A DNA stretch of 64,000 nucleotides from Nitrosopumilus sp. (GCA_965218695.1 OZ244651.1:704001-768000), one strand, 5' to 3'. Shown: positions 60,819 through 64,000, counted from the stretch's first letter. Notes: generated from the sequence alone by a model not told the origin. Translations and numbers: made by a program.

Positions 60819-61630
60819 TCGCATCTGCTGCTGCTGTTGCTCCTGCTCTGCTGCAGCCTTCTTGCCATGACGTATGGCGTGGCAAGCAGTATGGGGATTG
60901 ACACTGCTATGAAGAGCGTCTGCATCTGGGCCAGCGCAATGGAGAGCGCGATTCCGCTTGCAGTTCCCACAAAGACAGACAGGAACGTTCCGGCGCACGT
61001 GGGGCATGCGATGAAGAGTCCGGTCGCCGCGCCTACTGCGCCCATCCCCCTGCCCTTTTTGGATATCTGGTAGGCGTTTGCAGCGACTGCGGCGTTGAGC
61101 CCCACCAGATACGAGACTGTCACCTGCAGCACCAGGTTGACTGGAATGACCTGCAGCCCAACGTGCTCTGTGAGGTACAGTATTATCTTTGGCATGTATC
61201 CCGGGGCATCGCAGCACGGGGATACAAATCCGGATGGAATCTCAGCGCCGTAGTGGATTGCAAAGTTTACCTCCGGCTGGTACACGAGCGTTCCTGACGC
61301 AAGCGAGAAGAATATCCCATAGCATACAAACGTGGCGACAAAGATTTTGCGTGATCTGTGATTCCATGTAATCCGGGCAATGACTGAAGAGAGGTCCTGT
61401 CCCGTTCCGCCTGCCTTCCATGCGTGGTACCTGTACATGCCTACTGCAACTGCCCCAAGGGATGCGGCCAGTGCGACATAGAACCCGTATGCTATCCTCT
61501 GTATCGGCTCTATTGCCTCAGGCGTAAGGAGTTCCGAATCCTGGTACCTTCCATACAGCACAAACAGCACCATGATCGCCCCGAATCCCAAAAGTATCAT
61601 GGGCTTTCCTGTGCCCGGCGAGAGGTTCAT
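60815..61630 (-). CDS. Host-type multi-TM protein with CC and CPTC motifs
   Basis: About 6 TM helices; purine-rich BRE plus TTTAAT upstream. Confidence 0.85.
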   Translation of the reverse strand: MNLSPGTGKPMILLGFGAIMVLFVLYGRYQDSELLTPEAIEPIQRIAYGFYVALAASLGAVAVGMYRYHAWKAGGTGQDLSSVIARITWNHRSRKIFVATFVCYGIFFSLASGTLVYQPEVNFAIHYGAEIPSGFVSPCCDAPGYMPKIILYLTEHVGLQVIPVNLVLQVTVSYLVGLNAAVAANAYQISKKGRGMGAVGAATGLFIACPTCAGTFLSVFVGTASGIALSIALAQMQTLFIAVSIPILLATPYVMARRLQQSRSNSSSRCD

Positions 61631-61673
61631 GGTTTGTACACTGCTCCGGTCTGATTAAATCCTATCTTGCATG

Positions 61674-63011
61674 GGAACTGTAAAGTTACAGTGACCCACT
61701 CATGCCGGCACACGAACACGGATATGCGGATATCGTGTGTTCGGCCGCCCTTAAAAGCCGCGCCGGCCAACATAATACGTTAAACACACCGAATGCGTCT
61801 GGCAGTTCCACGACCGCCACGACGAGCTCAAAGAAACGTTTGAGAATTTCAGGCACGGCACCAACGAGGCCATCAGGCTCGGAATACTCCACAACATCAC
61901 GTCAACCAAAAAGTTCCAAGAACTCGCGTATCCTGGGATGAGGCGGAAAGGACACTATGCCACCCACACGCAGGAGGCAATCAAGACCGGAAAATCTCTG
62001 TTAAAAGCATGGCGTACCGCGCTCCGCAAGGCCGCAAGGAAGGCCAAGGACAAAAAGAAAGGCAACGCCAAGACAAGAAAATCCAACCCTGCCAAGAAGC
62101 CCAAAAAAACCACGCGGCCGTACGTCAGAAAAGACGTGCTCAAGATAAACAACCAGAACTACAAGATCATTGACGGTTCCATTGTTATTCCCGCGATGCT
62201 CGGAGACCATGTCCGAATCAGGCTCGCATCCTACGTGTCAGAGAAGATCCAAGGTGGAAAACTTGGCGGCATCACGCTTACCAAGGACAGGCTGATCGTG
62301 TCATATTCGGAGACAGTCGAACAAGCAGTCCCAGACGGATGGCTCGGAATGGACCTGAATTTGGACAACATCACCACGTATGACAGCCAATGCAACGTAA
62401 AAGTCATGGACATTGCCAAAGTCAGGCATATCAGGGAGAAATGCAGGGGTAAAGTCAGTCGTTTCAAGCGGAATGACCACCGTGTAAGGAAGAAGATTGC
62501 CTCAAAGTACGGCAAGAAAGAAAAAGACAGGACCACGCCCATCATGCACGCGGCGGCAGGCGAGATCGTCTCGCGGAACCGGGGAATCGTCATGGAAGAC
62601 CTGACGGACATGAAAGGCAAGTGGAAGAAGGGTTGCGGGACGTCAAAAAAGACCAGAACCAAACTGAACAGTTGGGGATATCATATTTTGCAATTCATGG
62701 TTGAATACAAGGCTAGAAGGCTCGGCCTTCCGACCAAGAAAATATCGGCGGCAGGCACGTCATCAAGGTGCGCGGAATGTGGAGGTAAGATGAACCCCGA
62801 AGCGCACCGCATGGTAACGTGCACACGCTGCCACGTGTCCATAGACAGGGACAAGAATGCAGGTAAAAACATACTTGCACGTGGGCTGTGGTTCGGCCCA
62901 GTCGGGTCCGCAGATGAAGCGATGGTGAGGGCTAGATCCGGGAAGCCGGATTCGAATACTTCAGTCGATGCGGATCAGTCAAGTCGCGGGTCACCGTAAC
63001 TTTACAGAACC
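61674..63011 (+). mobile_element. Non-autonomous TIR element carrying only tnpB
   Basis: TIRs GGAACTGTAAAGTTACAGTGACCC and GGTTCTGTAAAGTTACGGTGACCC (21/24); 8-bp TSD CTTGCATG at 61666-73 and 63012-19. Confidence 0.85.
61776..62999 (+). CDS. tnpB: TnpB RNA-guided endonuclease (start codon unclear; first ATG at 61938)
   Basis: GMDLN, VMEDL, TSSRCAECG...CTRC and DRDKNAGKNI motifs. The frame is open and TnpB-like from 61776. Confidence 0.92.
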   Translation, partial: YVKHTECVWQFHDRHDELKETFENFRHGTNEAIRLGILHNITSTKKFQELAYPGMRRKGHYATHTQEAIKTGKSLLKAWRTALRKAARKAKDKKKGNAKTRKSNPAKKPKKTTRPYVRKDVLKINNQNYKIIDGSIVIPAMLGDHVRIRLASYVSEKIQGGKLGGITLTKDRLIVSYSETVEQAVPDGWLGMDLNLDNITTYDSQCNVKVMDIAKVRHIREKCRGKVSRFKRNDHRVRKKIASKYGKKEKDRTTPIMHAAAGEIVSRNRGIVMEDLTDMKGKWKKGCGTSKKTRTKLNSWGYHILQFMVEYKARRLGLPTKKISAAGTSSRCAECGGKMNPEAHRMVTCTRCHVSIDRDKNAGKNILARGLWFGPVGSADEAMVRARSGKPDSNTSVDADQSSRGSP

Positions 63012-63030
63012 CTTGCATGACTCCTCAGCT
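62880..63030 (+). ncRNA. Predicted omega/reRNA scaffold plus flank-derived guide (bounds approximate)
   Basis: Position only: between RuvC-III coding sequence and the element's right end. Structure not verified. Confidence 0.4.
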
Positions 63031-64000
63031 CAGCCGCGGGACAAAGATGTAGATGATTGCAATGATCTCCAGCCTCCCAAAGATCATCAGGAATCCCAGG
63101 TATATCTTGGTTGCCGGATCCGTCTCCGAGTCGATGACTCCTGCCGAGAGTCCGCCCGTGGTGATGACCCCCACTGCCTCAAGGAACGCGTCCTGGTACG
63201 GCACGTCCCCTATGGCTGCAAGGTGTGCCCCCGTGACTGCCGAGATTATCAGAAAGAGCCCCAGTATGATGCTGCTGGATATGATCTCCTTTCTTGTCTG
63301 GTCATCAAGGCTGCTCCATCCGGATTTCGTAAGCACCCTGACTGCATCCCTAAAATGAAAGAGCCTGAATATCTTCAGTCCCCCGGCAGTGGAGAACCCG
63401 CAGCCTCCTATAATCATGAGGGTGACAAGTATCGACTGCGCCGACCCCCCCAGTCCTGCAAGGCTCTCCAACTGCAGGCCTGCAGTGGTGCTTGCAGATA
63501 CTGTTAGAAACGCGCCGTTCAGCGGGTCGGTGCCGGAGATGGCTATGAACAGGAGCAGTGCGCCGCACAGTATTGCAAAGTACGTCAGGACCTCCTTGCC
63601 AAGTTTTGGGGCAAGGAACTTTTTTCTTACAAATGCATAGTGGAATGTAAACGGCAGTGCGCCCAGGATCATCGCACCCATCAGCACCACGTACTCCTGC
63701 CACAGCAGGCCGTCAAGGATCGTCGATGACGGGACAAACCCCCCGGTGGCAAGCGTGCTCATTGCCAGCGAAAAGTAGTCAAGAAGGTCTCCCCTGCCAA
63801 GTACAAACAGCAAAAGTGCCACTATCACTATGTAAAGGGCAAAGATGACCGTGATGGTAAGGAAGAGCTCCTTCATGTGAAGCGTCTTTCCGGATATGAA
63901 CCCGCGCATGGACTGCAGCTTGGACTCGGGATAAAACGCAGTGATTACCAGGTATATGAAACTCATGCCCCCGACTAGCTGCGTGTAACTTCGATAGAAG
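63025..64000 (-). CDS. trkH: TrkH potassium uptake membrane protein (5'-partial)
   Basis: TLATGGF, STTAG, GGCGFSTAGGLK, ITTGG and GRLEI pore-loop motifs. Confidence 0.93.
   Translation of the reverse strand, partial: FYRSYTQLVGGMSFIYLVITAFYPESKLQSMRGFISGKTLHMKELFLTITVIFALYIVIVALLLFVLGRGDLLDYFSLAMSTLATGGFVPSSTILDGLLWQEYVVLMGAMILGALPFTFHYAFVRKKFLAPKLGKEVLTYFAILCGALLLFIAISGTDPLNGAFLTVSASTTAGLQLESLAGLGGSAQSILVTLMIIGGCGFSTAGGLKIFRLFHFRDAVRVLTKSGWSSLDDQTRKEIISSSIILGLFLIISAVTGAHLAAIGDVPYQDAFLEAVGVITTGGLSAGVIDSETDPATKIYLGFLMIFGRLEIIAIIYIFVPRLS

Follow-up and report, generated by a model that had tools for sequence, protein, structure and literature searches.

A tnpB-only element with IS6-type ends in Nitrosopumilus, and a predicted RNA whose guide may begin at the target-site duplication

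The stretch of DNA analyzed here (the window) comprises 64,000 nucleotides of Nitrosopumilus sp., an archaeon of the ammonia-oxidizing type (GCA_965218695.1, OZ244651.1:704001-768000), and it carries at 61674-63011 an element of 1338 bp whose sole gene is tnpB, the gene of an RNA-guided nuclease. The element is bounded by terminal inverted repeats (TIRs) that agree at 21 of 24 positions, and it is flanked on both sides by the same 8-bp target-site duplication (TSD). In a repeat search, this TIR pair was the top-ranked inverted repeat within 61400-63300. By an arithmetic estimate, about 0.04 repeats of at least 21/24 within 3 kb would be expected by chance anywhere in the 64 kb, and about 6e-7 once an adjoining 8/8 direct repeat is required. 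The tips of the element, GGAACTGT and GGTTCTGT, are of the GG..CTG type, that is, of IS6 type, and we take them to resemble the repeats of IS26 and IS257. A preliminary description of this DNA had proposed 24-bp TIRs with three mismatches, an 8-bp duplication on both flanks, the lack of a transposase and a stop codon inside the right TIR. All four proposals hold: the repeats and the perfect duplication lie where they had been placed, tnpB is the only long frame of the element, and its stop codon is the TAA at 62997-62999. The coordinates are collected in Table 1.

Table 1. Features of the tnpB element in the window and its three full copies in the genome (G000)
Feature	Position	Strand	Remarks
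Candidate target-adjacent motif (TAM), TAT	61663..61665	+	Directly 5' of left TSD; same letters in the G002 empty site; putative role
Left TSD copy CTTGCATG	61666..61673	.	8 bp, perfect duplication
Left TIR GGAACTGTAAAGTTACAGTGACCC	61674..61697	+	24 nt
Imperfect hairpin within left end	61712..61744	+	Read from sequence
TATA-like CTTAAAAG	61750..61757	+	About 25 nt 5' of start codon; invariant across three copies
tnpB	61779..62999	+	406 codons and a stop; window copy with mutated start codon
Predicted omegaRNA scaffold	62882..63011	+	RNAalifold, single folds
Right TIR, reverse complement GGTTCTGTAAAGTTACGGTGACCC	62988..63011	-	Holds tnpB stop codon and 3' arm of predicted terminal hairpin
Right TSD copy CTTGCATG; predicted guide nt 1-8	63012..63019	.	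Putative guide role
Predicted guide-encoding flank	63012..63031	+	Similarity among copies ends exactly at 63011, the element tip
Copy A (window copy)	G000 C1:765674-767011		Start codon lost
Copy B	G000 C1:917932-919269		97% identical to A; intact TnpB of 406 aa; left repeat with 2-nt deletion
Copy C	G000 C1:825049-826376		85% identical to A; +4 frameshift in tnpB

The protein encoded by tnpB matches the Pfam model Cas12f1-like_TNB at 1.7e-15, above the cut-off, and the match to OrfB_IS605 is weak (18-22 bits, below the cut-off of 30.5). In an alignment of 10 clade members, the RuvC residues D192, E273 and D356/D358 (D-E-D) and the zinc-finger cysteines C331, C334, C348 and C351 (CxxC...CxxC) are invariant, and all of them are present in the window copy (copy A), as had been claimed earlier for the three RuvC acidic residues. 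The tnpB genes of copies A and B differ at 33 nucleotides and 12 amino acids, and the ratio of nonsynonymous to synonymous substitution rates (dN/dS) of 0.23 indicates that TnpB is under purifying selection. In copy A itself, the GTG start codon seen in copies B and C is replaced by GTT (61779-61781); its frame is open from 61776, and the next ATG, at 61938, would give a protein of 353 aa. Copy A would be unable to make full-length TnpB from the normal start, and it could still supply guide RNA to the TnpB of copy B. Upstream of the gene, CTTAAAAG is presumably the promoter TATA box, judging from what is generally known of archaeal promoters, and its spacing to the start suggests a leaderless mRNA.

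The genome to which the window belongs (G000; 2.63 Mb, 99.99% complete) holds three full copies of the element as found by blastn, all of them with TIRs and 8-bp TSDs, those of copy B having diverged. The TSD of copy C is a perfect 8 bp, TTTTGATA, unlike that of copy A, and the tnpB of copy C, besides being frameshifted, has lost 18 nt through deletions in the lysine-rich linker. Copy B is flanked by TGAAAAGG and TGGAATGG; the ancestral TGGAAAGG is kept in the congener G002, where it reads once, and therefore each TSD copy of copy B has undergone one later change. In G002 the sites of all three copies are empty, with flanks that are 91-94% identical. Site A (flanks 94% identical) reads ...CCTAT CTTGCATG GCTCC..., with a single CTTGCATG, and at site C the sequence TTTTGA.. 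occurs once. The empty site foreseen in relatives is also seen in contigs from two of the four public runs examined, which join 61665 to 63012 with the 8 letters shared; their flanks diverge from G000 by about 6-7%, so these contigs come from a relative. As the empty sites in G002 and in the run contigs hold the 8 bp only once, the duplication did arise through insertion. Further copies were sought in metagenomes: the right-end pattern had no match there, and the scans gave one distant relative, which is without a clean duplication.

Two 183-bp right-end fragments (G000 C1:1735775-1735957 and C1:294645-294827, with a counterpart at G002 C1:1093264-1093446) hold the last 176 nt of the element, followed by a flank that is the same in G000 and G002. 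These fragments (F1 and F2) were considered as stand-alone guide genes, and this was rejected: in G000 they are remnants truncated by a 1173-bp insertion sequence (IS), which sits at the tnpB codons for DRDKNA, and this block is present in duplicate. The genome is rich in IS, with about 18 copies of the 1173-bp IS (tips GAGACATCATCCGTAATT) and about two dozen copies of a 1468-bp IS that has a frame of 482 aa; the two directly adjoin at C1:1559836-1561008 and C1:1561009-1562476.

The transposases that usually accompany TnpB are of the Y1 type or are serine recombinases. Neither Y1_Tnp (PF01797) nor Resolvase, the model for serine TnpA (PF00239), had any match in the G000 genome, and in both cases the control genomes were matched; the usual TnpB partners are therefore unavailable there. 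Transposases are found within elements of related genomes that have the same kind of ends. For example, G051, of the same genus, carries a 2997-bp element with identical repeats, GGTTCTGTAACGTTATCGTGACCT, which agree with the right repeat of the window element at 20 of 24 positions. This element has the TSD GAATCCTG, a passenger gene and a 375-aa transposase that matches DDE_Tnp_IS240 (PF13610) with 52 bits (cut-off 27). A scan of 54 loci around PF13610 matches yielded 19 pairs of repeats flanked by duplications of 7/8 or better, and four of these were dropped because their tips are not IS6-like. The TSDs of the remaining 15 transposase-bearing elements are all 8/8, and one of these autonomous elements starts with GGCTCTGTAAAGT, which is identical to the first 13 nt of the right repeat of copy C. 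The transposases of the relatives with such ends combine DDE_Tnp_IS240 with an N-terminal zinc-finger region, and PF13610 matches occur in 50 of 151 genomes of the family, a tally that includes three unpublished genomes, which enter no other result here. These comparisons best support the reading that an IS6-type DDE enzyme mobilizes the element in trans. The earlier proposal that TnpB had been captured by a cassette mobilized by a DDE transposase is thus well supported in its DDE part, given the IS6-type ends, the 8-bp TSD and the autonomous relatives; as for the capture, it was not a recent one, the association being a clade-wide feature (see below). The autonomous IS with the same ends that had been expected exists in related genomes, at 20/24 or with the first 13 nt identical, and none with paired ends is found in G000.

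Several candidates for a local partner in G000 were rejected. The G051 transposase has two homologues there: the closest (72% identity, contig C4) has no recognizable ends, and the other (46%, C1:1109882-1111018) has a single end only, which agrees with the right repeat of the window element at 18 of 24 positions. The latter locus (L002, C1:1109599-1111018) encodes an intact 374-aa transposase with zinc finger and IS240 domain, and low-GC, tRNA-like sequence lies between its one recognizable end, GGTTCTGTCGAGTTAATGAGAGCC, and the transposase gene. A 1696-bp IS with six copies was also rejected, its ends being GGTTCTCCTGCATC and its duplication 9 bp. It is found at C1:1556699-1558394 and in five more copies (of the six, five at 99.9% or above and one at 97%), and has inverted repeats of about 84 nt that start with GGTTCTCCTGCATC and a 404-aa transposase that barely reaches the IS240 cut-off (27 bits). 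Among the 15 autonomous elements, four (L210, L220, L226 and L209, in G226, G195, G160 and G292) have an 8-bp TSD that abuts the tip of another IS6- or TnpB-type element, which suggests insertion beside pre-existing ends.

The same element design is found with relatives of this TnpB at 28-45% identity within the same archaeal family. A profile scan of one genome per species gave 181 relatives, and the best 80 of these stand in records titled as Nitrosopumilaceae, Nitrosotalea, Nitrososphaerales, Bathyarchaeia and Asgard archaea. When 109 TnpB loci were scanned (some of them redundant, many cut by contig ends), 32 passed the filter, and after three had been dropped as spurious (L152, L090 and L091) there were 29 non-redundant TnpB elements of 1.2-1.36 kb, with GGTTCTG-type tips and TSDs of at least 7/8, in records of Nitrososphaerota, Bathyarchaeia and Asgard archaea. 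One relative, L072, carries the tip GTTCTGTTGCAAAC. With 29 such elements across archaeal groups, the association is not a local capture; the link between TnpB and IS6-type ends is old and a feature of a wide archaeal TnpB clade. The G000 genome also holds two TnpB paralogues at 42-45% identity, C1:2389795-2390995 (L091, with paralogue P1 at 2389795-2390931) and C1:33787-34504 (L092), whose 3' regions have AGTCGATGCGGATCAGT in common and terminate in GTTAACAGAACC or GTTAGCAGAACC. L091 (P1) has an IS6-type right tip, and no left repeat was found for it at up to 8 mismatches in 20.

The folding models predict, with good support, an omegaRNA that runs across the 3' end of tnpB as far as the right tip of the element. 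For the last 180 nt of 11 relatives, RNAalifold predicts 20 pairs, 11 of which have changes on both sides. The predicted scaffold consists of a stem at 62882-62900, a long stem that pairs 62905-62912 with 62969-62976, a terminal hairpin at 62978-63005, and the tail AGAACC at 63006-63011; of 10 single folds, 8 show a terminal hairpin with a 6-nt tail behind it (AGAACC or AGTACC), and it is the inner right repeat that supplies the 3' arm of this hairpin. Among the 29 elements, the inner repeat forms on average 6.79 of 8 pairs with its own upstream arm, compared with 6.13 for the repeat cores of other subfamilies (Mann-Whitney 8e-6) and 5.90 for shuffled controls, and the right-end hairpin has 6.24 Watson-Crick pairs versus 5.17 at the mirrored left end (Wilcoxon 1e-4). 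A search of Rfam gave no match to an omegaRNA family and only two chance-level matches (E ~1.8-1.9). The right TIR would play a double role: as DNA, it would be the end recognized by the transposase; as RNA, it would contribute the 3' side of the last hairpin with its inner part and, with its tip AGAACC, a single-stranded tail leading into the guide.

The guide would be read from the right flank, so that its first 8 nt would be the TSD. In the TnpBs that have been studied, the guide is about 16-20 nt long. We compared the flanks of 31 insertions, namely the 29 clade elements, copy B and a miniature inverted-repeat transposable element (MITE) of G002. All 31 TSDs are different, and none of their positions exceeds 0.41 bits; being variable, they are not scaffold, and the guide would instead open with these 8 nt. 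In the left flank, position -3 is A or T in 31/31 (1.09 bits), position -2 is T in 23/31 (0.93 bits), and position -1 is mostly a purine; no other position of flank or TSD exceeds 0.41 bits. The resulting motif, W-T-R, stands in 22/31 left flanks versus 7/31 mirrored right flanks (Fisher 2.9e-4) and on only 2 of the 30 sides of the 15 autonomous elements (Fisher 2e-7 versus the 22/31 left flanks), p-values that are descriptive, the motif having been defined after seeing the data, as was the T-A-Y of the G000 family. Because the motif is concentrated 5' of the left TSD, and is uncommon on the mirrored side and rare beside the transposase-bearing relatives, we think it likely, on balance, that the guide starts with the TSD, that the flank motif is the TAM, and that the empty allele is fully matched by the guide; for the guide and the empty allele, this is the model of the preliminary description.

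In such a model, the empty allele, which consists of the TAM, a single 8 bp and the right flank, would present a full match to the guide and would be cut. In the filled allele, the full match at the right junction would be preceded by the non-TAM sequence ...AACC, and at the left junction the TAM would be followed by no more than 8 matching letters. If a cut in the empty allele were repaired from a chromosome copy that has the element, the element would be spread or maintained; in other words, it would home. In short, the best explanation overall, and one that we regard as probable, is a non-autonomous archaeal IS6-like transposon which inserted via an 8-bp staggered cut, whose only cargo is tnpB and its predicted omegaRNA, which would be moved in trans by an IS6-type DDE transposase, and whose guide would start at the TSD. 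It is conceivable, and we put it forward more tentatively, that the wide archaeal TnpB clade has co-evolved with IS6-like DDE transposons, with a 24-nt end in a dual role, the TSD as guide seed, a TAM of 2-3 nt and cutting of the empty allele only.

A different origin of the repeats would be that an IS1341-type (IS200/IS605) TnpB element landed in an older IS6-type MITE, to which the TIRs and the TSD would belong. G002 does contain a 144-bp element with the same ends and no tnpB, in which element nt 1-75 are joined to 1272-1338 (flanks CCTGAATC and CCCGAATC), and an imperfect hairpin lies within the left end; this hairpin shows one compensatory change (GATAT..ATATC in copies A and B, GACAT..ATGTC in copy C) and is retained in the MITE. 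However, of the right 67 nt of the MITE, 55 are the end of the tnpB frame and are homologous to the coding sequence of a paralogue up to residue 401, and the MITE is therefore an internal-deletion derivative rather than an older MITE. The tnpB-less MITE that had been named as a possible refutation thus exists in G002 and does not refute the proposal. In addition, the right TIR forms part of the covarying predicted RNA, the same anatomy recurs in the TnpB relatives at 28-45% identity, and G000 is without a Y1 transposase, so that we consider such a landing scarcely credible. Elements of the IS1341 group lack TIRs and a TSD, whereas the empty sites bear out 24-nt repeats and an 8-bp TSD here, and the serine recombinase TnpA that marks IS607 is absent from the genome. 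It is also quite improbable that the TSD is folded into the RNA scaffold and that the guide begins after the 8 bp, as has been proposed for Fanzor elements. Fanzor RNAs reach about 15 nt past the TSD, and for Fanzor1 and some Fanzor2 the prediction is that both TIR and TSD belong to the scaffold, at least in the portions of Yoon et al. (2023, PMC10711439) that bear on this point. Here, on the other hand, the TSD differs at every one of 31 insertions, which leaves no conserved scaffold possible, and the conserved letters of the flank adjoin the 5' side of the TSD and not its 3' end.

Besides the after-the-fact definition of the flank motif, several observations weigh against a homing transposon moved by an IS6-type enzyme, and some of them fit the alternative that TnpB is mere cargo, with the A/T motif reflecting an insertion-site preference (e.g., for archaeal promoters) or host tolerance, and with neither a TAM nor homing. 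Copies A and B are both inserted immediately upstream of TATA-like boxes (ATTTAAT, and TTATAAAT on the other strand) of divergent genes, the boxes beside copy A (window 61631-61665) and copy B standing about 22-24 nt before the ATG, and the sites of these two copies may have been chosen by the insertion machinery. The mirrored side is also A/T-biased at -3 (26/31, 0.41 bits). The G000 family has T-A-Y in its flanks (TAT for A, TAC for B, TAC for C, TAT for the MITE), which differs from the W-T-R of the clade. Each of the three copies has a lesion of its own, in the start codon of A, the left repeat of B and the frame of C, and with every copy damaged the family may now be inactive in G000; the window copy is probably a decaying member, and with three different single lesions mutual complementation could still be possible. 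A search of G000 for an autonomous element whose paired ends match gave none (no further inverted pair at up to 6 mismatches in 24). Finally, the sections on bacterial members in PMC6807381 have IS6 elements forming cointegrates rather than simple insertions, and only simple insertions are visible among the copies here. The cargo alternative has to contend with the one-sidedness of the motif (T at -2 in 23/31 left flanks vs 12/31 mirrored), its rarity beside the 15 transposase-bearing relatives (2/30 sides), the lack of a TATA signal at a fixed distance in the 31 left flanks, and the purifying selection on TnpB. The motif also sits exactly where a TAM would be needed if the guide starts at the element tip. 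We therefore regard mere cargo as unlikely.

The accepted role of TnpB is to put back a transposon that a Y1 or serine TnpA has excised without a scar, and this has no obvious fit to DDE elements that duplicate their target. The element family described here would offer a concrete and testable geometry for RNA-guided homing alongside a TSD, in which filled and empty alleles would be told apart by the element tip, which is not a TAM, and by the limit of 8 matching nt at the left junction. If true, this would amount to a gene drive for a target-duplicating and possibly never-excising transposon, which has not been described for prokaryotic TnpB. One short sequence would be doubly constrained, as DNA by the transposase and as RNA by the nuclease. 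Many archaeal annotations of "IS200/IS605 tnpB-only" elements would have to be re-filed as IS6-type non-autonomous elements, and the family would yield a number of compact TnpBs for which a short TAM is predicted.

Among known systems, the element is like the IS1341 group in having a lone tnpB, a guide RNA at the 3' end (predicted here) and no transposase inside. IS200/IS605 elements are described as having no TIRs and no TSDs, their Y1 TnpA recognizing subterminal hairpins, in the relevant passages of PMC13565253 and PMC3119063; unlike them and the IS1341 group, the window element has TIRs and a TSD, and its genome is without Y1. A survey of thaumarchaeal mobile elements, in the part that deals with TnpB, files TnpB elements under IS200/IS605 (PMC6563490).

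The link of TnpB to DDE transposons as such is already published. Altae-Tran et al. (2023, PNAS; PMC10691335) report in their main text six DDE-associated TnpB branches (DDE-1 to DDE-6) with inverted terminal repeats, read solo TnpBs with the same ends as trans-mobilized, and name only IS630 (DDE-6). In its section on such associations, a 2026 review (PMC13565253) lists ISL2, IS630 and IS1031 and calls the association of OMEGA systems with DDE transposases relatively low. The window element resembles these branches, as the main text of PMC10691335 presents them, in that a prokaryotic TnpB lies within a TIR element with the tnpB 3' end at most 250 bp from the element end. It differs from the descriptions in that main text and in the review passages in its IS6-type ends, 8-bp TSD, TSD-first guide and adjacent TAM, which are not mentioned there. 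One of the branches DDE-1 to DDE-5, which are defined in the supplements of PMC10691335, may already correspond to the archaeal clade. We found no publication that links TnpB to IS6-type ends, the supplementary definitions of DDE-1 to DDE-5 lying outside this comparison, and the IS6-type linkage would be the new part.

The archaeal and long zinc-finger branches of IS6/IS26 and their MITEs, as they appear in the corresponding sections of Harmer and Hall (2019, PMC6807381), share with our element the GG(T/C)TCTG-type tips, the 8-bp TSD and, in autonomous relatives, DDE_Tnp_IS240; the same sections express doubt that the archaeal elements belong in the IS6 family proper. Unlike IS6/IS26, the window element is without a transposase, and its cargo is a nuclease with a predicted guide RNA.

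In eukaryotes, Fanzor was reportedly described by Bao and Jurka in 2013 within DNA transposons that have TIRs and TSDs. The likeness lies in an RNA-guided nuclease carried as cargo by DDE-type, often non-autonomous transposons, with the TIR as a predicted part of the scaffold, going by the statements on Fanzor RNA in PMC10711439. The difference is that Fanzors are eukaryotic or viral and that their TSDs, which those statements describe as short and fixed, are taken to become part of the scaffold, whereas in the archaeal elements the TSD is a variable 8-mer that would itself be the seed of the guide.

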